Source: a virus
Taxonomy: Duplodnaviria > Caudoviricetes
Length of the DNA stretch: 64,000 bases
Strand: one strand, 5' to 3'
IMG/VR virus record: IMGVR_UViG_3300015245_000006
Coordinates: 648 to 64,647 of that record
In this document: in pieces, positions 2,077-57,600 of the stretch
How positions within the stretch are numbered: position 1 is the stretch's first letter
Layout: each line of letters opens with the position of its first letter
Notes under the pieces: generated by a model
Seen by the model: the letters and a program-made list of their open reading frames with translations, nothing else
What the model was told of the DNA's origin: nothing
The model's database searches: none
Position numbers and translations under genes: made by a program

Positions 2077-2618
2077 CGGCATCGCATCTTTTGTTGGTCG
2101 CAAGTGGTGCGGTCCCAATACATGCCAAGCTTGGAATGCGCCAAAGCTTGGCAGGCGATGGCGCCCATCCCGATCAATGCGACTCCATGTCCAGGAGCGT
2201 TGCTGAACTTTCCGTTCTTGGCCTCGCGCTCAAGGCGCGCGCGGTTTTCAACACTTGGAATGAACCTCGTTTTGCCGCGTGGAAACAAAATGCCTTCCGC
2301 ACGTGGCATCAGATCGTGCCACCAACTTGAAGACGTGTAAGCTCGCACGATCGCGATGCCGTTCGCATGGTCAAAAAATTTGACCAGCCAAGGCACGTGA
2401 CCGAACCTACCGCCGAACGGCGAGTTCATGAACACCAGTCCTTCCCATGGTTGCGAAAGTCCATCGTCGGCGATCGTGTAAATCTTGCGGGCCGGTACCC
2501 AATGTCCAGGACCTGGCGAGCAGGGATCGAGAGCGAATATAAGCCCGAGCGCCGCGAACATTTCTGGCGGCGTGTACCAGTCGTCACTTTTGCCGGTGCA
2601 GGATTCGTGTTCGGCCAT
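2073..2618 (-). CDS. phage Dam-like DNA N6-adenine methyltransferase
   Basis: SDDWYTP, LDPCS, motif IV variant VFMNSPF, RGKTRF. Confidence 0.8.
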   Translation of the reverse strand: MAEHESCTGKSDDWYTPPEMFAALGLIFALDPCSPGPGHWVPARKIYTIADDGLSQPWEGLVFMNSPFGGRFGHVPWLVKFFDHANGIAIVRAYTSSSWWHDLMPRAEGILFPRGKTRFIPSVENRARLEREAKNGKFSNAPGHGVALIGMGAIACQALAHSKLGMYWDRTTCDQQKMRCR

Positions 2619-3061
2619 CAGCGTCGCCTCATCCCTTCATAGCGCTTGTCGGCCGCAAGCTCGTTGTAGCGCTGCATCAGGTCTTCCCGATTACAGGGAA
2701 TCCATGTCGCCATCAGATTGACGGCCTTGCTCATGAAGGCATCGAACTCATCCTGCTTCATCCCGGTAACGAAGTTCATTGACTTCGGTTCGAGCTGAAT
2801 ACGTCCATCGACATCGACGCGAGTATCCGTGTAGTCAAGCTTGATCAGCGCATCCTTGCGGATCGTATCCACGGTCAGATCCATCGCGTCAGCGACGATT
2901 GATGCGAGGGAGAAAAACAAGCGGTGCTGCCTTGTGTTTCGCGCTCGCACGATCTCGGCGTAGACCTCCGTACCATCCTTGATCGCGGCCAGGGCAGCGA
3001 CCGACTCATCGTCGGTCGCCACCAAGACTGTTCCGGCCTTCTGCAGGATGATCCGGCTCAC
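2618..3061 (-). CDS. DUF1367/NinB(Orf)-like recombination accessory protein
   Basis: RARNTRQHRLFF...PKSMNFVTGMKQDEFDAF; GTGA coupling. Confidence 0.65.
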   Translation of the reverse strand: MSRIILQKAGTVLVATDDESVAALAAIKDGTEVYAEIVRARNTRQHRLFFSLASIVADAMDLTVDTIRKDALIKLDYTDTRVDVDGRIQLEPKSMNFVTGMKQDEFDAFMSKAVNLMATWIPCNREDLMQRYNELAADKRYEGMRRR

Positions 3062-3285
3062 CACCAAATGCCCTTCAACAATGCCTTTGGAGTGGTGCCG
3101 AGCGCCTTGGCGTATCGCTCCACCCCATCCAGCAAGAGGCGCTGACGCCCTATCTCGGTATTTGTCACCGAGACGCGCTTGAGGCCAACGCGCTTTGCCA
3201 GATCGTCTTGGGTAATGCCGAGCACCTCGCGGATTTGTCTGATCCGCAGGCCGACCATGGCGTGACACGGTTCGATCGGTTTCAT
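3058..3285 (-). CDS. XRE-family HTH regulator
   Basis: IRQIREVLGITQDDLAKRVGLKRVSVTNTEIG. Confidence 0.85.
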   Translation of the reverse strand: MKPIEPCHAMVGLRIRQIREVLGITQDDLAKRVGLKRVSVTNTEIGRQRLLLDGVERYAKALGTTPKALLKGIWW

Positions 3286-4295
3286 CGGTTGCTGTTCGCC
3301 TCAGTCACGCGGGTCACGTGCTTGATCGTGAGCCGCACAGCTTCTTGCCATTGTGAAGCTGGCACCTTGCCTTTCATCGGCATCATGTGCTTGTCCTGCT
3401 GCTCGCCCATCGAATGCGCGTCCTCACAGCCGCCATAGGCGTTATCGAGCGACTTCAGCCATTCGTCGATGTCGACCTCAAATTGCTGTTCCTCGACGTG
3501 CTCCTCTTCTTCCGGTGGCGATGGCGCTCGCCTCTCAACGGTGAGAGGCTTATCACCCGGGAAACCCTCCTCGGTCTTTGCCTCCTCCTTCGCGGGTTCG
3601 GCTTGGGTTTCGGGCTGCTTGGTTTCATCTGGCGGCGGCGGTGCGCGCCGGGCCGGCCGTGGCGATTCGGCTGGCGTCGGTTCCGTGTCCTCGATCTCTT
3701 CACGGAGATGGAGGCCCTTGAGCACGTCCGCGAACGCGTCGCGCAGCACCCACCTGGCGCGCATCTTCACCATGCGTTTCGGGTAGGTTATCCATGGCGT
3801 GTCCTGCCCGCTGCGCCCGCGCTTTTCCCAGATCTTCGCCGTCTTGGCATCGCCGATCGAGAATTCGCCAGTATAGACCTTGGGATGGCCCTTCCGCTTG
3901 ACGCGGCAGATGGCCGTGTAAGCGTCGGTGCCCCAAACCCCGGCGGTGGTTTCCTCGATCCATTCCATCTTGTCAGATGCATAGATCAGCGCGAGCGCTG
4001 CATCGCCCCAGATCGTCGGTTTGCCATTGATGACGGCGATCGATTGCAAGGCTTGCATCGGTGTCAAACCGATTTCCAGGCCATGCAGGATCGCCACCAT
4101 CGCCTTCGGGGTGGTTTCAAGCGTAGACGGCGCCATGCCGGCTTCGACCACGACGCGGGCGATGCGATAGGCGCCGTCGAAATCGACCGGCACGAGCGCA
4201 CGAGGCGCCGCGCCGGCCATGATCGGCACCCGCATGGGCTGGTCGACCGCCGGCAGATTCCGTGCCTGCTCGTTGTTGTTGTCCTGGTCGCTCAC
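3282..4295 (-). CDS. RecT-like single-strand annealing protein
   Basis: GLEIGLTPMQALQSIAVINGKPTIWGD...WITYPKRMVKMRAR; next to exonuclease. Confidence 0.8.
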   Translation of the reverse strand: MSDQDNNNEQARNLPAVDQPMRVPIMAGAAPRALVPVDFDGAYRIARVVVEAGMAPSTLETTPKAMVAILHGLEIGLTPMQALQSIAVINGKPTIWGDAALALIYASDKMEWIEETTAGVWGTDAYTAICRVKRKGHPKVYTGEFSIGDAKTAKIWEKRGRSGQDTPWITYPKRMVKMRARWVLRDAFADVLKGLHLREEIEDTEPTPAESPRPARRAPPPPDETKQPETQAEPAKEEAKTEEGFPGDKPLTVERRAPSPPEEEEHVEEQQFEVDIDEWLKSLDNAYGGCEDAHSMGEQQDKHMMPMKGKVPASQWQEAVRLTIKHVTRVTEANSNR

Positions 4296-4978
4296 TTCGC
4301 CTCCTTGATGGCGTCGTAGTCCTTCGAAAAGTGCACGATCGGCTCGGGCTGGAAGCCTTGATCCAACATCAGGCGGAAACAGGCTTCAGCACCACGGCAG
4401 TCCGCCAGCGCGCCGTGCAGTTGAGTTGGGTCGTAGATGATGCCCAAGAAGTTCATCAGGTCAGTGAGCTTCGGCCAGCCCTTGTTGTTGGCGCCGGCCT
4501 TGACCAGTTCTCGGCCGATCGTCTTGGCGAACGGTCGCGCCTGGCGCATCAGGCAGACGTTCGGAGTCCGCGTAAACAAATCGGCCTCCTCGTTCACGGC
4601 GCGGTGCTCCAGTTCGGCCCGCACCATCTCGCGGCGTCGCAGTTCGCCACGCATGATCTTAGTGTCGAACTGCGCGCCGAACGCGATCACGGGCAAGCGG
4701 TTGACCACGATGCGCTCGGCATACCAATCGAGCACATGCTCAACCGGAATGCCCTTTGTATCCAAAAGCTCATTCGTGATTTTGTTGACTGCGGTGGCGC
4801 CGGCTTCCATGTTCCAACCATGCGGTTGGATGTAGCGCTGATACTCCTCGATCTGCTCACCATCGTAATCGACGATGATGGCGGCAAACTCGGCCAGCCT
4901 TGGCTGGCCTTCGGCCTCTGCCGACCTCTTGTAGTCCGGCAGAGTATTGGTCTCCGTGTCGATGATCATGTAACGCAT
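4292..4978 (-). CDS. DEDDh 3'-5' exonuclease (DnaQ-like)
   Basis: IIDTET, FGAQFD, LHGALAD motifs. Confidence 0.85.
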   Translation of the reverse strand: MRYMIIDTETNTLPDYKRSAEAEGQPRLAEFAAIIVDYDGEQIEEYQRYIQPHGWNMEAGATAVNKITNELLDTKGIPVEHVLDWYAERIVVNRLPVIAFGAQFDTKIMRGELRRREMVRAELEHRAVNEEADLFTRTPNVCLMRQARPFAKTIGRELVKAGANNKGWPKLTDLMNFLGIIYDPTQLHGALADCRGAEACFRLMLDQGFQPEPIVHFSKDYDAIKEAK

Positions 4979-6126
4979 CAGATCAAGCCTTTCCTCGTTG
5001 AAACGCCAGGGACTTCACGGCCGGCGCGGACCGCTGCGAGCGCCAAGGTCTTCAGCACGAGCTGGACCTCGGGCGTGTTCTTGAAATAGCTGAACAGCAA
5101 ATCCCAATCGATCGGCTTGTCCTCGTCGAGGAAGGTCTTTTCCTCCTCCTTGAGCCTGCGTTTGCCATAAGTCGGCGTCAGCGGCGCCGGGGCTGGTGTC
5201 GGCGCCGCTGTCACCACGGGAGCCACCGGAGGGGCTTCCGTCTCGACGACAACCGGGGGGACTTCCGGTTCGCCGCGAGCTATCGCGCGATCGGCCGCGC
5301 GGTCATTCTCTTCCTGTTCGGCGCGCAATCGGTTGGCCTCGGCCGCAGCCTTGGCGTATGCCTCATCGGCAGCTTTCTTGGCCGCGGCCCATTGTTCAGC
5401 CACGATGCGCTTGCGCTCGCTCTCGCGGAATCTCAGGATCTTGGTGTTGAGCGCCTTCTCCTCGGTATCCGCGCGCGCCACCATCGGATTCCAGATGGCG
5501 TAGAGCCGCTTGTACTCGGCAAACGGCGGCTTATAGAGCGCCTCGCCATCGCGCGTGGCCGCAAGCCGCAGCTCGGCCAGCCGGTTCTTGATGCCGAGTG
5601 CCTGGCCCGCATCCGCCTCGGTCTTGATGTCGAAAACTTTGGAGACGCCGATCGCGTTGTCGATCGCCTGCTCGTGCACCTTCTCCGGCGGCAGTTCCTC
5701 CGGCGGATTGTTATCGGTCTTTGCGACCTCACGATTGGCGGCCGGGATATCGGTGCCATTCTCCATCGTCTTGGCAAGCTGTTCAGCCGGCTCATCCGGC
5801 CACGGCTTGCCGTCCTCGGCGCGAGTCTTGTAGACCGAATAGCTGATCGGATTGGCGACGATGTACGACCAAAACTCTTCGCTGGTGAGTTCGTCCGCCG
5901 TCAGCTCGCGCACCTTGAGAGGATTGTCGTAAGAGCCGATCAGACCGACGAGTTCTCCTCCATCGACCCACAGCGCCACCGCGTTCCAGCCCAACGTCTT
6001 CCACTGGCCGTTCTGAAGCTTCTGCTTGACCGGCTTGCGATAGTAGCCTTCATCATCATTGCCCGGTTGAAGGAACGTCTTCACGGCCTCGCCGGCCAGC
6101 CGCTTCTTCCAGTTATCGTAGCTCAT
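4978..6126 (-). CDS. hypothetical coiled-coil protein (Gp157-like C-terminus)
   Basis: 382 aa; helical middle; ends GREVPGV; in recombination module. Confidence 0.7.
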   Translation of the reverse strand: MSYDNWKKRLAGEAVKTFLQPGNDDEGYYRKPVKQKLQNGQWKTLGWNAVALWVDGGELVGLIGSYDNPLKVRELTADELTSEEFWSYIVANPISYSVYKTRAEDGKPWPDEPAEQLAKTMENGTDIPAANREVAKTDNNPPEELPPEKVHEQAIDNAIGVSKVFDIKTEADAGQALGIKNRLAELRLAATRDGEALYKPPFAEYKRLYAIWNPMVARADTEEKALNTKILRFRESERKRIVAEQWAAAKKAADEAYAKAAAEANRLRAEQEENDRAADRAIARGEPEVPPVVVETEAPPVAPVVTAAPTPAPAPLTPTYGKRRLKEEEKTFLDEDKPIDWDLLFSYFKNTPEVQLVLKTLALAAVRAGREVPGVSTRKGLI

Positions 6127-6302
6127 TAAAACAGGTCCCTCTGGTTGGCTTCATCAGAAAACAGACCGACGTCGCAGGGTTGCTGCGCGCGGCGTGGTTT
6201 CAACGGAGAATTGGCTCGGCGCTGCGCCATGGTGGCGTCAGATGCGCGCTCGGCGCCGGGCAGCACTGTTTGCTGCCCGGCCTCGGTGGTGTCAATGGTC
6301 AC
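6126..6302 (-). CDS. small protein ending in QRDLF (candidate beta-clamp-binding peptide)
   Basis: GTGA coupling; 22/48 identity to an internal segment of the giant protein (54977-55150). Confidence 0.75.
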   Translation of the reverse strand: MTIDTTEAGQQTVLPGAERASDATMAQRRANSPLKPRRAQQPCDVGLFSDEANQRDLF

Positions 6303-6652
6303 TGGTGCGGCATCCTGATCGAGATGCACTTGCCGGTATACTCGCCGTCGCCGACATAGGTCGAAACGTAAATGCCGGCGCCGATGATCAGATCCTCGAT
6401 CGCCTCCTCAACGCGGTTGTGCATCATTCCGGCCGGAAGAGGCACGCGCTTATCAAACTCGATATTGATCCAATGATAGGCCGTCCCCCTTCCTGCGGTA
6501 ACGCTGATCTTGACGCCCGGGCACAGCGGCGCGTTCGCGTTAGTCGCCCGCAGGAGATAGGTCTGTTCAAGCAGTTGCTTGACGCGCCGATTGCGCGCTT
6601 TCACGTCGATGGGGGTCCGTTTAAATTCGCCGTGCTCTTGAAAAGGGTTCAT
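6299..6652 (-). CDS. hypothetical protein
   Basis: MNPFQEHGEF...; coupled at both ends. Confidence 0.65.
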   Translation of the reverse strand: MNPFQEHGEFKRTPIDVKARNRRVKQLLEQTYLLRATNANAPLCPGVKISVTAGRGTAYHWINIEFDKRVPLPAGMMHNRVEEAIEDLIIGAGIYVSTYVGDGEYTGKCISIRMPHQ

Positions 6653-6822
6653 GTCCGCGCCCTCGTAAGAGTGATGTTGAAGCGGTCGCCAGAGGCCAGC
6701 TTGATCCGGATAACCGGACATCCGCTGGTGTTTTCGCTTTTGACGATTTCGGCGTTGGGGAAGTGGCCTTGCAAGCCGAGGGCGATCACCTCGGCTAGCA
6801 TTGCGCGTCTGGTATCGCTCAT
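6649..6822 (-). CDS. hypothetical protein (57 aa, below ORF-track cutoff)
   Basis: MSDTRRAMLAEVIALGLQGHFPNAEIVK...; fills the operon gap; ATGA overlap. Confidence 0.6.
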   Translation of the reverse strand: MSDTRRAMLAEVIALGLQGHFPNAEIVKSENTSGCPVIRIKLASGDRFNITLTRART

Positions 6823-6825
6823 CGC

Positions 6826-7701
6826 TCACCATCCCATCTTGGTTGCGCAGATCGGGCCGATGCCGGCATAGACCGAATGCTTGTCCGTCAGCACGCGCCC
6901 GCACACGGAACACGCGCCCATGCGCAGGCCATAAGCCTTGGCAGCCTTGTGCGGATCGGCCGCGGCCTCCAAGATGCGGCCCTGCATCGCCTCGGTGCAC
7001 TCGCGGGTGCAGACGAACTTGCCCTCGGTGATTCGCCCAAGATAGGTCGAGCCGCCATTCGTGGTCACGTAGATCGATCCGCACCACTTCGAGTTCGGTC
7101 CCGCCGGGCTGAACTTGAAGCCGTCCAGGATTAGCTTCGGCTTGCGGACGCCGCGCGAGGTGGCGAAGGTGAACGCCTCTTCGACCTTCGAGATGGAGAT
7201 TTCCGGCGCGCAGTCGAGGCGCGTCTGAGCCTCCACCTTGCGCTCGGCAGCCCGCGCAACCCCCTTCCGAATCGCTTCGAGCTGGCCGAACGTCAGCGAT
7301 CCGTACTGATGGAGCTTGCCCTGCAACGAACGAGCAAATTCGTTGGTCTCCAGATTGGCAAGCAGCCAGGCGCACTCAGCCGGATGTTCGGCCTTGAAGG
7401 TCTCAGCCATCGCCAGGGCAGCAGCCGCGGTCGCCTGCGCGATCTTGGCCTTGCGCGCGCCAGTAGCCCCGCGCGACTTGGCGCGGGCCTCCGACGACGT
7501 CTTAAAGGTCAGTTTGCCGGCACCCTTGCAATGGAAGCACCGCTGGTGACCGTGAGACGAGGGCCCATTGTAGCGACCGGTTCCCCGGCACCTCGGGCAA
7601 TCCTCGACGTATTTGGTCTCGTAGCCGTTCGCCGGCTTCACGCGCGGCGCGCCGTCGGCGGTCTTCTCGGCAGCAAAGAGATCATCCAGGGAGTCGTTCA
7701 T
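6826..7701 (-). CDS. zinc-finger / DUF6011 domain protein
   Basis: CPRCRGTG..CFHCKGAG; C-terminal CSVCGRVLTD...GIGPICA. Confidence 0.75.
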   Translation of the reverse strand: MNDSLDDLFAAEKTADGAPRVKPANGYETKYVEDCPRCRGTGRYNGPSSHGHQRCFHCKGAGKLTFKTSSEARAKSRGATGARKAKIAQATAAAALAMAETFKAEHPAECAWLLANLETNEFARSLQGKLHQYGSLTFGQLEAIRKGVARAAERKVEAQTRLDCAPEISISKVEEAFTFATSRGVRKPKLILDGFKFSPAGPNSKWCGSIYVTTNGGSTYLGRITEGKFVCTRECTEAMQGRILEAAADPHKAAKAYGLRMGACSVCGRVLTDKHSVYAGIGPICATKMGW

Positions 7702-7880
7702 TGGGCGGTCTCCTCGCATTGACGGGCCCACACGAGATCGAGCGCGCGGAAAAAGTCCTGCTCGACTTCGCGGAGGATACGGACGTCATTGCTGTTGAGT
7801 TGGCCGAGGCGGCGGTGCTGCGCGAGGCGTGCGCGGCACCAGAAGAGGTGGTTGCGGGCGTCCTGGAGGCGAGCGTTCAT
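7698..7880 (-). CDS. hypothetical protein
   Basis: 60 aa; coupled at both ends. Confidence 0.6.
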   Translation of the reverse strand: MNARLQDARNHLFWCRARLAQHRRLGQLNSNDVRILREVEQDFFRALDLVWARQCEETAQ

Positions 7881-8413
7881 CGGGCGCGCTCCTGCTCGTC
7901 CAGTTTCTCAGCCAACTCGTTGGCGCCCTTCAGGACGTCTTCCAGCGACATGCCGTAGTCGGAGATGATGTCGACGCCGTTGCCCCAGACCAAAAACACG
8001 AAGGACGAGCGCTGGCCTGCCTTGGTGACCCCCAAGGTATCGTTGCTGGTCGACGCCAGCGCCCTGAAGATCGTCGGCGCGTCCTTGGATGCCTTGACGG
8101 TATCCTCTTCGCCATCGTTGACCGTGATGGCGTAGCCAGCGGCCAGGAGGTCATAGACGGCCCGGCCGACGATCCGCTGTTCGGTGTCGGTCGCGTTCGG
8201 GATCAGCGCCAGGTCCAGCTCGCGCAGCACGACGGTGTCCATCAGCGACACAATCGAGGAAAGCCGTTCGAGGACGTTGTTCAGTTGCTTGATAGTGGGG
8301 CGAGCGGTGGAACCGCGATGGGCGTTCTCGCCGAGTTCCTTATGGGCCTCGTCCGCCAGGATGCGGATCAGGCGCAGTGCAGAGAGGGTGGTATCTTGCG
8401 ACCCTATTACCAT
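7877..8413 (-). CDS. hypothetical protein, first gene of leftward operon
   Basis: 178 aa; ...VFLVWGNGVDIISDY. Confidence 0.65.
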   Translation of the reverse strand: MVIGSQDTTLSALRLIRILADEAHKELGENAHRGSTARPTIKQLNNVLERLSSIVSLMDTVVLRELDLALIPNATDTEQRIVGRAVYDLLAAGYAITVNDGEEDTVKASKDAPTIFRALASTSNDTLGVTKAGQRSSFVFLVWGNGVDIISDYGMSLEDVLKGANELAEKLDEQERAR

Positions 8414-8560
8414 CCGAGCACCATGCTATATGTTTGATATTGCTGCGATATTATCATGTCGCTGCTCCATTGGGTTAAGCGTCAACTTAAGTGTTGACGG
8501 ACACTAATATACGCGCATATAACGTGAATGCAACTATTTTCTACAGGGCTAAAAACGTAG
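8414..8560. promoter_or_regulatory. divergent promoter/operator region
   Basis: AT-rich gap between divergent operons; TTGACG(8494-8499)-N18-TATAAC rightward; TTGCAT(8533-8528)-N16-TATATT leftward; inverted repeat CGTCAAC-N6-GTTGACG 8480-8499. Confidence 0.6.
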
Positions 8561-9112
8561 ATGCCGCGTAAGTGCAAATGTGGGGCGCCAATCGACAACG
8601 GCATGAACCGTTGTCGGCCGTGTCACGCCGACGCGGAGCGCGCACGGCGCAAGACTTGCCGGCCATCGATTGAAGAGAAACGTAAGAACCGCGCGCGCTC
8701 TGCGGCTCGCGCAGCCAGGAATCGCGGAACCCTAATTCCCCAGCCATGCTCGTGCGGTGCTGAAAGCTCTGAGATGCATCACGAGGACTATTCCAAACCG
8801 TTGGAAGTGAAGTGGTTTTGCCGCAAGTGCCATGTGGCGTTGCATTACCCGGCACATGCTCGAAAGCACAAAAGGATCAAATCGATGAAGTTGGGCGCGT
8901 GGATGGAGCGCAATTTTTGGACGACAGACATGTTTGCCGAGAAAGTTGCTGCCGAACTGAACAGAAGCACTTTTTCGCCTCGGACGGTCGAGGCTTGGAG
9001 GCAAGGCCGCGCAATCCCACGGTACCGGATGCTGCCCGTGATCTCGAAAATCACGAACGGAGAGGTAACGGGGGACGATTTTGTTTCACATGAAACGAAA
9101 GGTACTTTGTAA
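8561..9112 (+). CDS. HNH-like zinc-binding domain fused to Cro-like HTH
   Basis: HHEDYSKPLEVKWFCRKCH; C-terminal SPRTVEAWRQGRAIP...ITNGEVTGDDF; internal ATG 8885 with AAGGA. Confidence 0.7.
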   Translation: MPRKCKCGAPIDNGMNRCRPCHADAERARRKTCRPSIEEKRKNRARSAARAARNRGTLIPQPCSCGAESSEMHHEDYSKPLEVKWFCRKCHVALHYPAHARKHKRIKSMKLGAWMERNFWTTDMFAEKVAAELNRSTFSPRTVEAWRQGRAIPRYRMLPVISKITNGEVTGDDFVSHETKGTL

Positions 9113-30127: not shown

Positions 30128-30876
30128 CGCAGCCACCCTTCGAGGATGACTGCCCTGACGGCGGCGGCCAGCGCCCGACCAAAGAACAGGCCGAAAAGGT
30201 CCGTGACTATCTGATCAGCCGCAAGCGCCCTGCGACGGTCAAGGCCGTGTTCGAGGAACTGTCGGCGCGCAACTATGTGGTATCGAAGGCAACCGTTGGC
30301 CGACTGATCCCGTTCAAGCCGCGCCCGCCACTCTCACCGGTCCGCAAGGCCGAACACCGCGTTACGAGTCGACGAGCGCGGAATAGAGTTGCCAGCAGTG
30401 AGGCAGCCAAACAGCCACCGCTGAAGGCGCCTGCGCCGCCGCCTGAAGTGTCGTCAGAGCCGGCCAAGGCTGCGCAGACGATTAGTGCCGCGCTCGCCAA
30501 GGTCGACCCGCGGTTTTCGCTCGAAGCCTTGACAAAGGCGGATGCCACCTCGACGGCGCTGGCGATCCTTGAGAACCGCGAGCGCATGGCGCTCAACATC
30601 ATCATCATGCGAACGATGGCGATGTACCCGGAGCGGATGATCGTCGACATGCGCTGCACCGCCGCCTTGGTCGATGCGCTCACGATGGCCGCGAAGCTTT
30701 CCGGGGGCGCCTCGATCGACATCACGGTCCCGACCAGTGACAATCGCCCGCATGGTTTGAATGGGGCCCATGGCAATGGCGAGATGAAGGACGTGACGCC
30801 GACGGTTATCAACCCGCTGGCGGAAGACTTCGCGAAGTGGCGCAACCTGCGCAAGACCAATGGTCAAGGAGCTTAG
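30124..30876 (+). CDS. putative terminase small subunit
   Basis: N-terminal HTH-like region; directly upstream of and overlapping terL; positional call. Confidence 0.55.
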   Translation: MTQPPFEDDCPDGGGQRPTKEQAEKVRDYLISRKRPATVKAVFEELSARNYVVSKATVGRLIPFKPRPPLSPVRKAEHRVTSRRARNRVASSEAAKQPPLKAPAPPPEVSSEPAKAAQTISAALAKVDPRFSLEALTKADATSTALAILENRERMALNIIIMRTMAMYPERMIVDMRCTAALVDALTMAAKLSGGASIDITVPTSDNRPHGLNGAHGNGEMKDVTPTVINPLAEDFAKWRNLRKTNGQGA

Positions 30877-32635
30877 AGGGACACGTTACCTCAAAGACCC
30901 GCGCCTTGGTGAGTTCATCACCACGAAGCTGCCGTTCCTCGATCTGGACGAGACGACGGATTTCTACGAGTTCATCGAGGAGACCGGTTCGGCGGCCGAC
31001 AAGGCGCTGCTCAACTGCAACGACCGCTTCTACCTGCTGACGGTTACATGCGGTCGGCGCGACATGCTGGTGCCGTGGATATTCGATCGCTGCCGCGAGG
31101 TCGAGGCCAACCCGGATGGTTACCTCGATCTGTGGGCGCGCTACCACTACAAGAGTACGATCTGCACGTTCGGCGGCTGCATCCAGGAAATCCTGGTCGA
31201 CCCCGAAATCACGATCGCCATCATCTCCGGTACCGACAAGGTCGCGCAGCCATTCCTGATCCAGATCCAAGAGGAGTTCGAACGCAATGACCTTTTGAAG
31301 ACCCAGCACTCGGACGTGCTGTGGGACGATCCACGGCACCAGGCGCCGCAGTGGTCGCGCTATAAGGGAATTGTCGTCAAGCGTCGGGGCAACCCGAAGG
31401 AGTCCACCGTCGAGGCATTTGGCCTGATCGACGGCATGCGGACCGGCAAGCACTATCAGATCTTAAACTTTGACGATCTGATCAACGAGACGATGGTCGA
31501 TAACCCCGACATCGTGAAGAAGGTAACGCTGCGCTGGGAACTGTCGGACAATCTCGGCGTGCTTGGGCTTACCCGCAAGTGGCACCAGGGCACGCGATAC
31601 TCATTCGCGGACACCTATGGCATCATCATCGACCGCGGTATCCTGAAGACGAGGATTTTCCCGGCCACCATCGACGGCACGCTGACAGGCAAGCCGGTGC
31701 TGTTGACCGAGGAGAAATGGAAAGACGTCAAGAAGGCGCAGCGCTCGACCGTCAATGCGCAGATGCTCCTCAACCCGATCGCGGGCAATGAGAGCACGTT
31801 CTCGATGCTGTCGTTGGCGCATTACGACATCGTGCCGACTGTGCTCAACGTCTACATCATGGTCGATCCGTCGAAGGGCAAGACCAAGCGCAGCGACCGC
31901 ACCGCCATCTCCGTGATCGGCATCGACGTCGGCGGCAACAAGTATCTGCTCGATGGCTACTGCCACCGCATGAAGTTGTCGCGGCGCTACGACCTGATCT
32001 GCCAGCTCCGCGAGAAATGGTCGAACCATCCTGGCGTGCAGCATGTTCGGGTCGGCTATGAGCAATACGGCATGCAGGTCGACCTGGAGGTGATCCAGGA
32101 ATACCAGGAGCGCGACAACGATCAGTTCCCGATCGAGGAATTGAACACCACGCAGGACGGCAAGCACTCCAAGAGCGACCGCATCTCGCGGCTTCAGCCG
32201 GATTTCAACCGCGGCATCTTCTATCTGCCGGCCGTGGTCTATCACGCAGACTTCGGCGGCGGCCTCGCCAACCAGGCTCTCTGGGACGTTTGGACCGAAG
32301 AAGATTCCAAGCGGATGATCGAGGCGGCCAACGGCGCCCACAACGAGGCGGTTGGCACCATCGTCTACCGGCCGATGCAGGACCTCACGCGCAACCAACG
32401 CGCCTGCAAAGCAACCATGCAGTCATTCCGGATCGTCACCGCGCTGAAGCGGCTCAACGAGGACGGCGACATGTACGACCTGACGCGGGCGTTCCTCGAA
32501 GAGTTCCGGCTGCATCCGTTCGCGGCACATGACGACTTCCTGGACGCGACCAGCCGCGTCTACGACATGAAACCAACCAAGCCGGTCCCGTTCGAGGCGA
32601 TGAACGCCGAGCCGCGCATTTATAAGGATTCATAG
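30860..32635 (+). CDS. terL: terminase large subunit
   Basis: ARYHYKST Walker A variant, TGKHYQILNFDD Walker B, QGTRY, VDPS...SDRTA, HDDFLDA. Confidence 0.9.
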   Translation: MVKELRGTRYLKDPRLGEFITTKLPFLDLDETTDFYEFIEETGSAADKALLNCNDRFYLLTVTCGRRDMLVPWIFDRCREVEANPDGYLDLWARYHYKSTICTFGGCIQEILVDPEITIAIISGTDKVAQPFLIQIQEEFERNDLLKTQHSDVLWDDPRHQAPQWSRYKGIVVKRRGNPKESTVEAFGLIDGMRTGKHYQILNFDDLINETMVDNPDIVKKVTLRWELSDNLGVLGLTRKWHQGTRYSFADTYGIIIDRGILKTRIFPATIDGTLTGKPVLLTEEKWKDVKKAQRSTVNAQMLLNPIAGNESTFSMLSLAHYDIVPTVLNVYIMVDPSKGKTKRSDRTAISVIGIDVGGNKYLLDGYCHRMKLSRRYDLICQLREKWSNHPGVQHVRVGYEQYGMQVDLEVIQEYQERDNDQFPIEELNTTQDGKHSKSDRISRLQPDFNRGIFYLPAVVYHADFGGGLANQALWDVWTEEDSKRMIEAANGAHNEAVGTIVYRPMQDLTRNQRACKATMQSFRIVTALKRLNEDGDMYDLTRAFLEEFRLHPFAAHDDFLDATSRVYDMKPTKPVPFEAMNAEPRIYKDS

Positions 32636-37289: not shown

Positions 37290-37769
37290 GTGGCAATCTA
37301 TTCCGAGAGCAATAAGCTTGCCGGCGCCCAGCAGAACCTCTCTGCTTCGCCCGGCAAGACCCTGGTCAACCTGACCGCGCTGACTGGTGCGGCCACGCTG
37401 AAGCGCGGCTGGATCTACGAATGCGAAATCGGCGCCGATGGCGCGCCCAACGCCACCGATTGCGCAATCACCTGGGAGTTCATGCGCAACACCTCTGTTG
37501 GCACCGGCACGGCCGCGACGCCCTCGCCGACCGATCCGGCCGATACCGCCGCTGGCCTGGTCGCCACGGTTAACCATACTGCCGAACCTACCCTTGGCGT
37601 TTCGTTGATGGCGATAGCGCTCAACCAGCGCAACTCGCAACGCTGGATCGCGCGCGATGAGAAGTCGGCGTTGATCATTCCGGCGGTCACCGTCAACGGC
37701 ATCGGGTTACGGGCTTACTCGCCGACATATGCCTCGACCGGCGTTGCGACACTGTTCCACGCGGAGTAA
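37290..37769 (+). CDS. virion structural protein
   Basis: AAGGAG RBS; Ala/Thr-rich beta protein. Confidence 0.65.
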   Translation: MAIYSESNKLAGAQQNLSASPGKTLVNLTALTGAATLKRGWIYECEIGADGAPNATDCAITWEFMRNTSVGTGTAATPSPTDPADTAAGLVATVNHTAEPTLGVSLMAIALNQRNSQRWIARDEKSALIIPAVTVNGIGLRAYSPTYASTGVATLFHAE

Positions 37770-48848: not shown

Positions 48849-49290
48849 TCCGCAAGACGTCGAGATTCGCTATGCGATGACCGACGACGACGTGATCGCG
48901 ATTCACCGCTTCCTGCTGATGGTGGCAAGGCCGGCGATGCGCTGCGAGCCGGATATCGAGCAGAGCCTCTTGGAGATCATCCGTGTGACCAAGTACGAGG
49001 CCGCGCTGATGGCGGTGCTCGACGGCAATATGGTCGGCACCATGGGGATCATGAAGGCATCGTGGTGGTACAACCCGCGTGTCTCTTTTATGACGGACCG
49101 ATGGCACTTCGTGCTGCCGCAATTCTGGCATGGGCCGGTTGACAAAGCGCTGAAAGGCGAGGCGATCGAAATCTCCAGGCTCGCCGGCTTTGAATTTGTC
49201 GACCAGGGCAAAACCCGCGAAGCCAAGGACGGCTCTCTTCTGATGATGCCTCGCATCTATCCTGTTCCAAACCTCCAAAGGAGCGCGTGA
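48757..49290 (+). CDS. GNAT-like acetyltransferase
   Basis: EIRYAMTDDD...MVGTMG...WWYN...FVLPQF; GAGGA RBS at this ATG. Confidence 0.7.
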   Translation: MSQRRRRRTSPQSSPRLSLTSNEAAPVAQPDPQDVEIRYAMTDDDVIAIHRFLLMVARPAMRCEPDIEQSLLEIIRVTKYEAALMAVLDGNMVGTMGIMKASWWYNPRVSFMTDRWHFVLPQFWHGPVDKALKGEAIEISRLAGFEFVDQGKTREAKDGSLLMMPRIYPVPNLQRSA

Positions 49291-49292
49291 CA

Positions 49293-50414
49293 ATGTGCTT
49301 CGGCATGACGACGACCGACCAGAAGACCACCAACTCGACCGCCAATCCGGCGGTCTCGGGTGCCGCCACCTCGAACCTCAACTTCGTGCAAGGGATCCAG
49401 GACAAGGGCTTTACGCCCTACACCGGCCAGCAGGTCGCAGGCTTCGCTCCGCAGCAGCAATCGTCATTCGACATGACGAACAACATTGCCAACAACGGCA
49501 CGGCGCCGGCTGCGCAAAGCATGATCAACAACTATGCGGGCGCACCGGCACAAAGTGTCGGCGCGGAATCGATCGCCTCGAACATGTCGCCCTACATGAA
49601 CCAGTACGTCATGCAGGCGCTCGCCCCGCAGCTTCACCAGCAGGACGTCACGCTGGCGAATAACCGGGCCGCGACGAACGCAACGGCGACCGGCTCCGGA
49701 GCTTTCGGCGATGCGCGCACCGGCATCGAGCAATCCCAGAACAACTTCAACGATGCGATTGCGCGCGAGGGCTTGATCGGCAACGCCTACAATTCGGCGT
49801 TCAATACCGCGATCGGCGCTGGCGCCCAGGATGTCTCGAACAAGCTCACGGCCGGGACCACGAACGCCAACTTGGCCGAGACCGCGCTCAACCGGTCGCT
49901 GGGAGGCGCCACCGCGCTCGAGGGCTTGCAGAACCAGCAGCTCGGGGTGGCTGGGGCTCAAAACACAATGGGCGCGCAACAGACCGCGCAGCAGCAGGCC
50001 GGGCTCACCGCGCAGTACAATCAATGGCTGATGGCGCAGCAATATCCGTTCCAGACTGCCCAGCTCATGAACCAGACCGTCGGCGCGGGCGCGCAGGCAA
50101 TGCCGGCGAGCACCACCTCGACCGAACAGAAGCCGGATAATTCCGGCCTGGCGCTCGCCGGTACCATTGCCGGCGCAGCCCTCTCGGACGAGCGGCTGAA
50201 GGAGAAAAAGAAGAAGGTCGGCAAATTGCGCGACGGCACTGACGTCTGGTCGTTCCACTTCATCGGCGATCCGCGACCGCAGATCGGCCTGATGGCGCAA
50301 GACGTCAAGAAGCGCCGTCCGGATGCGGTACACGAACTGTGGGAAGGTGGCCCCATGGTGGTTGATTATGAGAAAGCCACGGCGCTTTCGCGGGCGATGG
50401 CAGGGAGCATTTAG
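49293..50414 (+). CDS. DNA ejection protein with C-terminal peptidase S74-like domain
   Basis: Q/N/A-rich; YMNQY, SGAFGDAR; SDERLKE...GLMAQDV...VDY. Confidence 0.8.
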   Translation: MCFGMTTTDQKTTNSTANPAVSGAATSNLNFVQGIQDKGFTPYTGQQVAGFAPQQQSSFDMTNNIANNGTAPAAQSMINNYAGAPAQSVGAESIASNMSPYMNQYVMQALAPQLHQQDVTLANNRAATNATATGSGAFGDARTGIEQSQNNFNDAIAREGLIGNAYNSAFNTAIGAGAQDVSNKLTAGTTNANLAETALNRSLGGATALEGLQNQQLGVAGAQNTMGAQQTAQQQAGLTAQYNQWLMAQQYPFQTAQLMNQTVGAGAQAMPASTTSTEQKPDNSGLALAGTIAGAALSDERLKEKKKKVGKLRDGTDVWSFHFIGDPRPQIGLMAQDVKKRRPDAVHELWEGGPMVVDYEKATALSRAMAGSI

Positions 50415-51637: not shown

Positions 51638-54600
51638 GTGGCATTTAGCGATGCCATGATCGGCAGCAACGATTTCGATCCCCAGGCCGCGACCGAGGAT
51701 CTGATCCGCCGCCTATCGGACGAGCCATTGCCGGACACGCTCGATCCGAAAATGCTCAATACCCGGCTGGCGCGCAAGCTCGGCGCCGAGCCGCCGAAAG
51801 AAGTCAAGGCCCCGAAAGCACCGGAGCTTGACTTTTCGGCGCAAGCCATTCCGGCCAGCAATACCGAGCCTGGCAATGTGCTCGATTTCACCTCTCAGGT
51901 ACAACCAACTCCGGTAGCCGCAGCCGCGCCCGGAACGTCGGTTACGGATAAGCTTCAGAGCGTCCACGAGAATATTGATCCCGCGACGGCCGCCAAGGGC
52001 TTCGCGAAGGGTGCCATGCAGGGCACCGGCGGCGTGATGAAGGGCGCCGCGCGCCTTCAGAGCCAGGCGCAACCTTACCTCAATTCCCTCGAGTACGACC
52101 CCATGGGCAACGTCATCGGCCAAAAGCCGGTGCAGCCACCCACTCCAATCGAACAGAACCCGGTTTACCGGGCCGGCAAAGCCGTGGAAGGAGCCGCGCC
52201 AGGCATGACGCCGGCCGAGGAAAGCTCCCTGACCGGCCAAGTCGGCACTATGGCGGGCGGAATTGCGCCTTATGCCGCGGCCACCCTTGTCGGTGGTCCC
52301 GCGCTCGGCATCGCCGCGGGCTTCACCGGCATGGCGGCCGATACCTATGGCAAGGTCTACGAAGAGGCGATCGACAAAGGCGCCGACGAAGCGACCGCAC
52401 AGAAGGCCGCAAGCCGTTCCGCCTTGGTCGCCGGCGCATTGGGTTCGTTGCCGCTCGGAGCGGGTAAGCTCGCCAAAGGGTTGATCGCCAAGGCCGGGAC
52501 CAGCGCGGCAGCATTCGCCGGCCTCGGCGAGGCACAGCATTGGGCGCTGGAGGAAATCGCCAAGAGCTACGATCCGGAACGCGGCTATTCGCTCGAAGCC
52601 AAGCGGCTGATCGCCGAGCTGATCCTCGGCGCCGGCATGGGCGGCCTGCACTATGCCCAGACCGACCACGTCAACATCAACACGTCGAGCGGACCAACGC
52701 CGACGGCAGGATTGCCGCCTCCGGCCGGAGGTAGCCCGCAAGGCGGTGCTGGATATGGTCCGGGAGGACGGCCGAATCCTGGCGCTGGCGCGTGGCCTGG
52801 AGACACAGGTTCATGGTCTCAACCGCCTCCTGGCGGTGGACCGCAGCCGGGACCGGGACCTCAGCCTGGTCCGCAATCGAATGCTGGCGCCGCTGGGGGC
52901 GCGCATCAGCAGCAGGGACCCCAGCCGCCGCCCGGCGGACCTGGCGGCACCCAAAGTGGCCCACGGCCCAATGCAGGCGGTGGCGGCCCGGGATCGCAGC
53001 AGCAGGCCAAACCGCCGCCTGGCGCTGGCGCCGGCAAGGGCCCTGAGTTCACCATGGACGCCCGCATGCGCGCGAAGATGGAGAAGGTGTTCCGGATGTA
53101 CGAGCCGGGCGCCGACGTCTCCGGCATGTCGGATTCCGACCTATTCAACGCCGTCAACGAGCACCTGCGCGACACCTCCAAGACCGGCTACACGGCGAAG
53201 CCGGAGACAGAGCAGGAAGCAGCGGCGCGCGAGGCGACCGCCAAGCGGCGCGATGAGGACGAGATCCTGCGCAAGGCCGGCTGGACCGACGCGCATATCA
53301 ACGCGATGAGCGAGGAGCAGCGCGCGTCCTACATGGCGCGCGCGCAAGGCGCCAAGCCCGAAGCTGCTCAATCGCGGAAAGATCGGACAGATCGGAAAGA
53401 TTCGGAACAGGCGGCCGAGCCAAAAGTCGAAGAGCCAGTGGCCGCGGCCAGTGGTGAAAATCAAAATGCCCCAAAAAACGAGCAGTTAGATATTCACCAG
53501 GGCACGCGCGAGGCGCCGATCGTCCCGAAGACCGCCGACGAGGTGGTCAAGGCACAGGCCGCGGAGCCAACACCAGCCCAGGCCAGCGCCGAGAACTACC
53601 AGCACGCACATGTCGAGCTCCCGCAGTTCGGGCTGACGGGCGACCGCTCGGTGTCGATCGAGACCGGTGTTGGTCAGACCCGCAAGGGCATCGGCGAAGA
53701 TGGGAAGCCCTGGGAAGTCCAGATGCAGGGCGGCGCGTACGGCCGGATCAAGGGCACGAAGGCGGCCGATTTCAAGCACGACGCGGACGGCAACCAGATC
53801 CTTGACAAAGATGGCAATCCGGTCCGTCAGAACCTCGATATCAAGATCGGACCCAATCCGACGAGTCCGTACATCTTCATCGTCGACCAGCACGACCCGA
53901 AGACCGGCAAGTTCGACGAGCACAAGATCCTGGCCGGTTACCGCACGCCGCTCGATGCGCTGCACGGGCATGCGCTCGATTATGGGGATCACGCGGAGGG
54001 CCGAATCGGTCACGTCACCGCGATGGGACCGGAAGAGTTCAAGGCTTGGCTGAAGACGGACACGACAAAGCCGTTGAAGCCGGAGACCGCGCCGCCGACC
54101 TCGATGCGACCTGAAGCCGTCGAGGCCGGCGCGCGTACTCCTCTGACTGAGGCTCCGGGTGAAGGCGCCAATTCCGAAGTCCCGAAGGTCGAACCCAAGG
54201 GCACGGCCAAACCGAAAACAACTACTACGGGTTTAGGTTCCGAGCAGCCGCTCTCGTTGCTGCAATTTATCGCTTCGAAAGGCGGCATTAAGGCACATCC
54301 CGAGTTGGCGGCGATTGGTCTCACCGGTGTCCACAGGATTGTGGTACCGGGCCGGAAGGGCTTTGCAGCCACGGTTTCACCAAAGGGCATGCATCTCGAC
54401 AAGATGCGTGAGGCCGCGCAGGAAGCCGGATACCTGCACGGCGAAGGCGAAAAGACATCGACAATCCGTGACTTGCTGGACGCAATTGATACCGAGCTTC
54501 GGGGCCAGAAGAAGCATGCGGCTGGCGAGGAAGGCACCAAAACTAAGGCTGAAGCCACCCTGGCGGCCGAGCGCGAGGCGCACGAGCAGGAGCGCCATGA

Positions 54601-57600
54601 AGCCAATTACGGCGAATCGGAGCGCTCCGTCGAAATCGAATATCCGGAAAGCCCGCTGGAGGTGCGCGCCGCGGCTGGGCGCCTGATGGTGGACGAGGGC
54701 ATGGACGTGCACGACGCGGTCGAGCGTGCCTCGGTGCAGCTTGCCAACGAGGATGAGCACTACCGCGAGACACCAGACCAAATCATTGATACATTCGGGC
54801 CCGAGGCAGACCATGTTATTCACCGCGCAACAGCACATGAAGATGGCGAAGAGACTGCACGCGCGGTCGAAGCAGGAGCGCGACCCGGTGGCGGCGAAGA
54901 AGCAGAAGGGCTTGGCGCACACGTTCCGGAGACTGGCGCAGCAGGCGGCGAAGAAGCAACCGCCGAAGTAAAACCCACCGTCGAGAAAGGCGCCGACAAC
55001 AAGCCGCAGCTTGTTATATCTGGCGCCGAGAAGATCGGCCAGGGCGCGCAGGCCAAGCGCGCGGCTGCCGCAGCGCTCAAGCCAAAAGTCACACAAAAGG
55101 CCATGGACGTTGGCCTGTTCGGCGACGAGAAGGACCAGGCTGACCTCCTCGACACCATCCGCGCATCGGAGCGCAAGATCGAGAAGGCGCTCGGCAAGGA
55201 TGCCGACAAAGTGGCGCCGGTCGATATCGCTCGCGCCGCCGAAATCATGGCCGAGCACGAAGGCATGGAGCCGGCCACGGCCTTCGGCCAGGCTGTGATC
55301 GAGAATGCGGTCGATCATGACTTCATCACGCCGCAGCAAGCCGAGGAAGCCTATGGCGAAAAAGTCAAAAACATATTGGACGCCGGACGGCAAGGGGCAT
55401 CTGGCGGCGGGACACCTGTTGAGCAAGAACGCGCCGCACCTGGGGAAGAGCGCACCGGTAGTGCAGCGGAAAATGGCGAGCTTCCGGGCGGCGGCGAAGC
55501 TGGCGAAGCAGGCGAGTCCGAACCTGCCCGTGCCGAAGGTGCAGGCCTACCCGAGCCTGCCGGGCCTGAAGCCACCGAGCCAGGAGCCACCGGCGGGGCT
55601 GAAGCCGCTGGGGACGAAGCCGGCAACGCCGCTGAACAAGAGCCTGCCGCCAGCCCTACCGACTACGCCGGCCTGACACCGCTCGATCGCTATAAGGCGG
55701 TCGCAAAGCGCATCGTCGCGGGCGATATCGGCGCCGACGAATTGAAATCGGAGTTCGCGCGCGTCCTGCATAGCGGCGATTACATCAAGGCCGAATTGAA
55801 CAGCCGCACGATCAAGCAACTGGCGCCGCGTGGCGCTGGCAGCATGAGCAAGAAGGAGATTGTCGACAGGATCTACTCGAACATGCTCCAGCGCTTCAAC
55901 GTGCATGGAAGCGTGACGTGGCAGCCGATGGGCCAGGAAACCTTTGAGGGCGCGCTCGCCAATCGAATTGAGAACACCACCGACGCCGATATCCAAGAGG
56001 CGACCGCCAAGCGCCAGGCCGAAAAGGCTGAATGGGAACAGACTTACGGCGATCCGCAGAGCCTCTATCAGTTCGAAGCCTTCATCCGCGCCAAGGGATT
56101 CGGCAAGCTCACGCCGGAGCAGCGCGTTCGCTACGATGAACTGAGGGCCGAAGAGAATCGCCGCGAGCTCGAGAAGGCAAAGGCCGAGCGCAAGAGCGAT
56201 GTCCGCAAGGTCGATACCGAAGTCGGGATGGAACTCGTTGAGACCAAGCACACGCAGAAAGGCCACGACCTGTTCGTGGTCAAGATGGCCGATCGCGTTG
56301 AGGCTGAAACTTACAAGGAACTGAATAGCGCGGCGAAGCGCCTGGGCGGCTACTGGTCGAGCTATACCAAAGGTGGAGCGGTCCCGGGCTTCCAGTTCAA
56401 GACCAAGGATGCCGCCGAGAAGTTTATGGCGGTACGCTACGGCGACGTCAGCCGCAAGGATCTCGTCCAGCACAAGGAAGAGAAGCGGCTTGAAGGCGCG
56501 GTGGACAATCTGCGCGACCAAGCCGAGCGCATGACGGTCGCGGCTGATGAGAAGCTCGGCGCCGATCGGCTGGTGAACACCGCGCGACGGGCCAACATAG
56601 CGGCCGGCGCTGAGGCGAAAGCGAATGCCGATAAGGCGCTCGCGACCAGCATGCGCAACATCGCCGATGCAATCGAGGCTGGCGAGGCGACACATCTGGG
56701 CTGGTTGCGTACGCGCGCCGATGTCGAGATGCTGGATCGGATCACACGCGGTACCAGACGCGATTGGGTCGAGGCGCAAAAGCCGGCAGACTACGGCGAG
56801 CGGCAAAAGCTGGAAGAGAAGCCCATCAGCCAGGAGATGATCGACGCGGCGCATTACCCATATCCCTACGCGCACCGCGAGGAAGTTGTTAAGCTGGCGC
56901 AGGCGGTATCAAAAACTCCCGGTGCCAAGATGGCCGCAGCGCGCCTGATGAAGGAAGCGCGACTTGCCGAGTCGAAGAAGCAATGGCGCGTCGAAGCCAC
57001 ACACCTTGGCACCTTGGACGATTTCAAGACGGTCGGAGAAGCCGCAGCGAAACTTCCAGGCGCCAAGTATGGCGCAAACACCATGCTGGAGTCGTTCAAC
57101 GATTTTAACCGGCTGCGGCGCCTTGGCATCAACGATCTGCCCTCACTGCGCGCGGCCCTGCGTGAGTTCCTGAAATTCCGCGGGAGTGCCGCGAAGGCCG
57201 ATCCGATCAAGGCTGCGGAGCGCGCTCTGGTCGGGCGCAAGATCCCCGGATATTTCCCCACCCCGGATGCTCTGGTCGATCGGATGATTGAGGCGGCCGA
57301 TATCCAACCAGGCATGAGCGTGCTGGAGCCGTCGGCCGGCAAGGGCAACATTGCGGACAAACTCGCGCTCGCGGCTGATCCGGGCGCTTTGTCCGTGATC
57401 GAACCTGTGCCTGATCTGCGCTCGATCCTGAAGGCCAAGGGCCACGACATCGTCGATAGCGATTTCCTGGATCACAAGGAGCGCGGCTTCACCTATGGCG
57501 ACGTCTACCGCGCGCCAGACGGCACGCTTGGTGTCATGCACGGAAGCAACGGCATCGGCGGCAATCGTGTTGGGTTCGAGAGGCTGGACGCCAATGGCGA

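Follow-up and report, generated by a model that had tools for sequence, protein, structure and literature searches.

The locus studied here raises the question of why a phage would encode, as a free-standing protein of 58 residues, a sequence that it also carries inside a giant protein encoded among its virion genes, and which partner in the infected cell this sequence might bind. The window analyzed, that is, the whole stretch of 64,000 nucleotides with a G+C content of 61%, comprises bases 648-64647 of a complete virus record, which is 64,647 bp long and has direct terminal repeats. Judged by its sequence, the phage has no close cultured relative, and megablast of positions 4000-9000 of the window found no cultured-phage relative.

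The solo gene lies on the minus strand at 6126-6302. The peptide quoted in the initial annotation is encoded within the minus-strand open reading frame 6126-6329, which offers two GTG starts, one at 6329 giving 67 aa and the other at 6302 giving 58 aa; the latter is the likely start. This GTG overlaps the stop codon of the upstream gene (GTGA), the stop codon of the solo gene runs into the ATG that starts the downstream gene, for a 382-aa protein (TAATG), and the solo gene is translationally coupled to both neighbours. A public gene call (P0003) is identical over all 58 aa of the solo protein. The gene heads a run encoding the 382-aa protein, which has a weak exonuclease match, a DnaQ-like exonuclease, a RecT-like annealase, and NinB (2618-6126, minus strand), as well as a methylase; the location beside a recombination module, as described in the initial annotation, is thus confirmed by the adjoining RecT, NinB, and DnaQ-like exonuclease genes. 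Two genes upstream of the solo gene, a 301-aa protein (6826-7731, minus strand) combines a C-terminal DUF6011 domain (E 1.1e-12) and CxxC pairs with a strong match to PHROG 4046, a family of unassigned function.

The AF2 model of the solo protein (mean pLDDT 70.2) contains a hairpin of two strands, residues 2-6 and 9-13, and a helix at residues 22-30; from residue 31 onward (31-58) it has no predicted secondary structure, with block pLDDT values of 58 and 55 over residues 41-58. Three segments of this protein are of particular relevance: (i) residues 19-31 (RASDATMAQRRAN; 6210-6248, minus strand), which include the helix and conserved A/R/A positions, (ii) residues 40-50 (QQPCDVGLFSD; 6153-6185, minus strand), which form the most conserved core, Q-x-P-x-D-x-G-L-F-[GS]-D, and (iii) residues 54-58 (QRDLF; 6129-6143, minus strand), which are the C-terminus of the protein, directly followed by the stop codon.

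The second copy is found in a protein of 3283 aa encoded on the plus strand at 51638-61489. Its frame is open from end to end, and the stop (N1) that had been placed immediately before the homologous segment was not found. The solo protein aligns by BLASTP to residues 1124-1171 of the giant (55007-55150) with 22 identities in 48 positions and no gaps (E 8e-9), the same count as obtained earlier by hand. A search of the phage's own genome returned exactly two copies (E 1.9e-42 and 1.4e-9). The solo protein and the giant's segment are two copies of one conserved module of ~55 aa. The internal copy (54992-55150, plus strand) contains GLFGD at 55112-55126 and QADLL at 55136-55150, and is flanked by low-complexity acidic and Gly/Ala-rich sequence.

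Other regions of the giant have recognizable relatives. Residues 647-806 form an InPase domain (PF18823, E 6e-24 by Pfam), and residues 1322-2104 correspond to an adenine-methylase region matching a PHROG DNA methyltransferase (E 6.8e-211). The gene follows a homologue of a DNA-ejection protein (49287-50414, E 1.8e-25) and precedes an endolysin gene; the portal and terminase genes are located upstream. Its domain composition and surroundings identify the giant as a polyvalent protein, i.e., one with several unrelated effector domains encoded among virion and ejection genes. The polyvalent proteins described by Iyer et al. 2017 (PMC5512222) likewise mix InPase and adenine methylase domains and are encoded beside virion or ejection genes; they are predicted to be injected along with the DNA, and by analogy the giant would be packaged and injected with the phage genome. 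According to the same source, uncharacterised domains of polyvalent proteins also occur as solo genes. Two further observations concern the giant and the terminase. A long Pro/Gly/Gln-rich low-complexity stretch (52650-53100, plus strand; residues ~340-490 of the giant) follows a hydrophobic Gly/Ala-rich N-terminal region, and, of 50,697 deposited phage records, only one matches the large terminase (30860-32635, plus strand), and that distantly, with 30.8% identity over 34% of its length.

The module belongs to a large family. Twenty-one further small homologues of the solo protein, 59-91 aa in length, were identified with E-values from 6.5e-20 to 2.9e-11, and their invariant residues are concentrated in the pattern ..VLPGAER..AQRRA..PLKP..Q.PCD.GLFSD...Q. 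A profile built from the small homologues and the giant's segment was scored against 1.84 billion representative proteins. The search suggested in the initial annotation, with a model built from both copies, thus uncovered a widespread family: 952 protein clusters (50% identity) match at E<=1e-3, and 337 of them at E<=1e-10. Among the best 150 of the 952 matches, 86 are small (<=320 aa) and 64 are longer, up to 5719 aa. IMG/VR has 46 loci that encode the module: in 40 of them the frame is small and complete (56-240 aa), and in the other six the module lies inside an open frame of 2511 to >3028 aa.

A pattern located the module, free of gaps, in 147 of the best 150 matches, and positions were numbered from the G of GLF. 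The upstream block comprises Q-35 (in 127 of the 145 matches with a residue at that position), V/[LI]/P/G/A/E at -33 to -28, and A-20, R-18, and A-16; it is joined to the core by a linker with P-13, L-12, [KR]-11, and P-10 in the 147 located matches. The core includes Q-6 (139 of 147), P-4, D-2 (127), G, L (142), F, [GS]+3 (146), and D+4 (133), and the tail Q+8 (146), D/E+10 (130), L+11 (115), and at +12 F, V, or L (105 of 147; F 48, V 37, L 20), the conservation of four of these columns being partly by construction, as the pattern requires G, [LMI], [FW], and a later Q. The most conserved element of the module, as judged from these alignments, is the internal GLF[GS]D. The initial annotation had described a peptide with a clamp-binding-like tail; the tail withstood the comparison, but the conserved unit is the whole ~55-aa module and not the tail only.

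The family has no name in the resources that were searched. Neither Pfam nor PHROG contains a family for the small protein, and Pfam has no match on the module stretch of the giant or, with the LPD models included, on ten mid-size module homologues. A profile search of PDB with the module gave nothing better than E 1.2, and all ESM Atlas neighbours of the module protein are labelled 'hypothetical protein'. For ten clusters, the source names were equally uninformative, the exception being a 5599-aa member named 'N12 class adenine-specific DNA methylase'. In cultured phages, no relative was found by tblastn with the small protein or with the segment of the giant, and a 186-aa homologue used as tblastn query gave only weak matches outside the module. 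The main text of PMC5512222 contains neither 'clamp' nor 'DnaN' (0 occurrences each); the module might already be listed as one of LPD1-40 in its supplementary files.

The tail of the module offers a first indication of a possible partner. Eight residues after the G of GLF, the family has Q-x-[DE]-L-[FVLI], and the QRDLF of the solo protein (residues 54-58) conforms to the consensus of pentapeptides that bind the bacterial beta sliding clamp, QL[SD]LF (PMC3716654), and to the consensus Qx[DE][LM]F of the Mor/C family, in which the motifs QHDLF/QPDLF of phage Mu MuC were tested experimentally (PMC12867686). In the AF2 model (residues 31-58), the motif segment is of the unstructured or terminal kind. 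Among 141 relatives, 119 have D or E at Q+2, 108 have L at Q+3, and 117 fit the looser pattern Qxx[LMFI][hydrophobic]. The terminal motif, whose absence from homologues had been named as the observation that would count against clamp binding, is thus conserved in at least 117 of 141 when the looser pattern is applied; of the 78 small homologues, only 15 have it at their extreme C-terminus, followed by 0-1 residues. The stricter pattern Q-x-[SDE]-[LM]-F occurs at none of the 80,536 internal positions of module-less ORFs (662 ORFs scanned in related loci). No excess of clamp-motif tails was found on other early proteins (1 of 662 ORFs). Beside the solo copy of a Pseudorhodoplanes MAG, a 96-aa ORF (L050:2738-3028) ends in ..NQPSLF and a 278-aa methyltransferase-like ORF (L050:3073-3909) in ..QGSLFDLVA; since only one in 662 ORFs has such a tail, these two are an anecdote and not a trend.

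To model a complex, we paired the window peptide (22-row alignment) with a monomer of DnaN, the beta sliding clamp (30-row alignment). The DnaN sequence was a stand-in from the alphaproteobacterial Pseudorhodoplanes MAG that carries the module, and may differ from that of the phage host. The three runs gave ipSAE values of 0.73, 0.73, and 0.51, and the best of three controls, which included one with DnaN swapped for an unrelated protein (0.00), gave 0.00; the ipSAE mark applied is reached by 58 of 80 solved complexes and by 2 of 110 mismatched pairs. The pLDDT of the partner was 54 or higher, and the contacts shared between the three runs were as low as 0%, so any one binding register is tentative. 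The confident interface of the best run spans peptide residues 19-48 and takes in the conserved A-20, A-16, P-13, L-12, K-11, P-10, Q-6, and P-4. Residues G46, L47, and F48 touch DnaN residues 179, 180, 253, 352, 366, and 368 in a hydrophobic pocket. These residues lie within the conserved ATDGHRLA and VLMPMRV motifs of DnaN, and we take them to be equivalent to the E. coli pocket residues G174, H175, V247, S346, V360, and M362. Clamp Gly-174, Arg-152, and Pro-363 are named as peptide contacts in a study of UmuC (PMC3716654). Peptide residues 19-31 touch domain I of DnaN (27-30, 47-50, and 112-121); because DnaN was modelled as a monomer, these helix contacts could clash with the second protomer. 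The model of the complex thus passes its controls, but not with the binding mode originally proposed: in the best run, the terminal QRDLF is outside the confident interface and the internal GLF occupies the Leu-Phe pocket.

The passing score itself may reflect the model's memory of solved clamp-peptide complexes, as at E<=1e-30 PDB contains 43 clamp sequences, of which one has 56 entries. An alternative explanation is that the module carries a short linear motif for another host hub (SSB partners, RecA, RNA polymerase, or the clamp loader), its resemblance to clamp ligands being coincidental. It draws on the disagreement between the runs, on the possible role of memory, on DnaN being the sole partner modelled, and on the length of the conserved sequence, since ~55 aa is far longer than a normal clamp-binding motif. 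The close fit of the tail to Qx[DE][LM]F and the 0.00 obtained when DnaN was replaced with an unrelated protein point the other way, and we consider a different hub unlikely. The reading that we prefer, with a probability of roughly 0.55 and resting largely on the complex model, is that both copies bind the host beta sliding clamp at its protein-binding cleft through a largely unstructured module. The clamp ligand would be composed of four parts: (i) a short hairpin and a helix, (ii) a PLKP linker, (iii) the invariant Q-x-P-x-D-x-G-L-F-[GS]-D, and (iv) Q-x-[DE]-L-[FVLI].

SocB of Caulobacter is an alphaproteobacterial protein that acts on DnaN; it is a component of a chromosomal toxin-antitoxin system, whereas the module is a phage element. 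Among phage proteins, MuC and Mor resemble the module in having terminal QHDLF/QPDLF-type motifs, two per MuC; MuC binds the E. coli clamp, and its overexpression is toxic via interference with Hda and DnaN (PMC12867686). MuC, a folded transcription factor, activates late promoters with the help of the clamp (PMC12867686). The module, compared here by motif and description, contains no other domain in its solo form; it differs further in its long conserved flank, in the invariant GLF[GS]D, and in its additional occurrence within giants predicted to be injected. The cellular clamp-binding motifs of Pol II, Pol IV, UmuC, and Hda share with the module a pentapeptide with Q and Leu-Phe in a disordered or terminal segment, and their Leu-Phe inserts into subsite 1 of the clamp (PMC3716654). 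Unlike them, the module has two candidate motifs eight residues apart within its conserved 55 aa, and in the best model Q is eight residues before F, compared with four in the cellular motifs. By its description, Gp168 of phage Twort is small, is made early, and acts on the beta clamp of the host, as would be the case for the solo protein; it differs from the module in being an oligomer of a Staphylococcus phage that plugs the DNA channel and blocks loading, and not a cleft-binding linear motif (PMC8565349).

Analysis of the distribution of the module shows that its two forms rarely occur together. Of five related viral records with a giant copy, none has a solo copy, and one of five related records with a solo copy also has a copy in a large frame. 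Thus, the claim that the same peptide is deployed twice is correct for this phage, with its two copies, but does not extend to a rule: both forms were found in one of ten related viral records, and in one MAG, where they are on different contigs. The solo and fused forms look like alternatives in most cases, which suggests the same job for both. One of the five giants has two copies; in this record (the one holding L008), the copies at G046:C1:36062-36235 and 37424-37594 are ~1.3 kb apart within a frame of 2541 aa.

A conserved gene partner was sought, but across the 46 module loci no match was found to any of 14 other proteins of the window. The 65 neighbouring ORFs fall into diverse PHROG families, of which the largest has three members. 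A conserved phage gene as partner was rejected, as the neighbours of the solo copies differ between loci; this lack of conservation favours a host target. Outside viral records, a scan of genome contigs with narrow patterns detected four module loci, three of them in alphaproteobacterial MAGs, and a profile scan of 301 alphaproteobacterial genomes found at least three with the module among the best 20 candidates scored per genome. The Mesorhizobium plasmid NZ_AP023255.1 contains an unannotated copy (L085:5669-6090) that ends with NQRDLF and is located between a gene for an ArdC-like zincin and genes for DUF2958 and ParB. The upstream half of this copy (..GEQTLVPG..) and its tail (..GLFDDARNQRDLF) are in different frames, suggesting a frameshift or a pseudogene.

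Next to the module, other giants have varied domains, such as a Strawberry-notch-type helicase together with a methylase (P0059), InPase (P0129), and an ART-PolyVal domain that starts four residues after the module (P0084); three of six large module proteins have no Pfam match. This position between unrelated domains and directly before new ones is what would be expected if the module were a linker between domains, a site of protease processing, or a signal that targets polyvalent proteins to the capsid, with the solo copies acting as decoys or regulators, and polyvalent proteins have indeed been proposed to be processed (PMC5512222). Such a role is quite improbable in view of (i) the 40 complete small ORFs with the module, whose early-type surroundings vary from locus to locus, (ii) the rhizobial plasmid copy beside the ArdC-like gene, where no capsid is involved, and (iii) the sampled matches, in which no one peptidase family accompanies the module. 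The association with methylase and helicase polyvalent proteins, together with the conserved R and K positions, could also be explained by a basic element (AQRRA, PLKPK) that binds DNA or DNA ends and protects or marks the incoming DNA. At its invariant positions (GLF[GS]D, Q-x-D-L-F) the module has hydrophobic or acidic residues, which is atypical for DNA binding, and it has no Pfam match and hence none to the DNA-binding families of Pfam; we regard this explanation as very improbable.

If both copies bind the clamp, the gene content of the phage offers a guide to what each might do. A DNA polymerase was not seen among the 25 of 36 matched families that were listed, and the region from 9 to 30 kb contains no ORF >285 aa. 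On this evidence, the phage probably needs the host clamp, and its replication is probably host-dependent. In the plus-strand genes of 9000-30000, no large helicase was found; this region has one PHROG match to a 'primosomal protein' and a further methyltransferase. The need for the host clamp argues against a plain shut-off of replication of the Twort Gp168 kind and favours competition with clamp clients by the solo protein and local tethering by the giant. The solo gene, presumably expressed early, would compete with clients of the host clamp, for example polymerases and Hda-type regulators. As a few injected copies cannot titrate the clamps of the cell, the fused copy must act locally; it would tether the injected polyvalent protein, with its methylase and other enzymes, to the clamp near the entering DNA. 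A bolder variant, which we consider doubtful, is a multivalent clamp cap, where Q-x-V-[IL]-P-G, GLF, and Q-x-D-L-F jointly cover the C-face and the two clefts of a single beta dimer; in this way, polyvalent ejection proteins would seize the host clamp in cis at the entering genome, and the solo copies would do likewise from the early transcript.

To our knowledge, only isolated examples have been described of phage proteins that exploit or block the clamp, namely MuC and Twort Gp168. The present analysis describes a large unnamed family of 952 clusters, in which the same candidate clamp-binding module is built into giants of the injected type or encoded by a tiny, presumably early gene, and for which a clamp-binding function is credible. 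If the binding is true, the replisome clamp would join the targets of polyvalent proteins, and the module would be a small natural ligand of the clamp that makes contacts outside the five residues usually involved. If the clamp-capping variant is also true, it would reveal that, in alphaproteobacterial phages and conjugative elements, injected polyvalent proteins target the clamp, which had not been recognised before. The module also provides a simple handle on the role of the giant proteins in the first minutes of infection.
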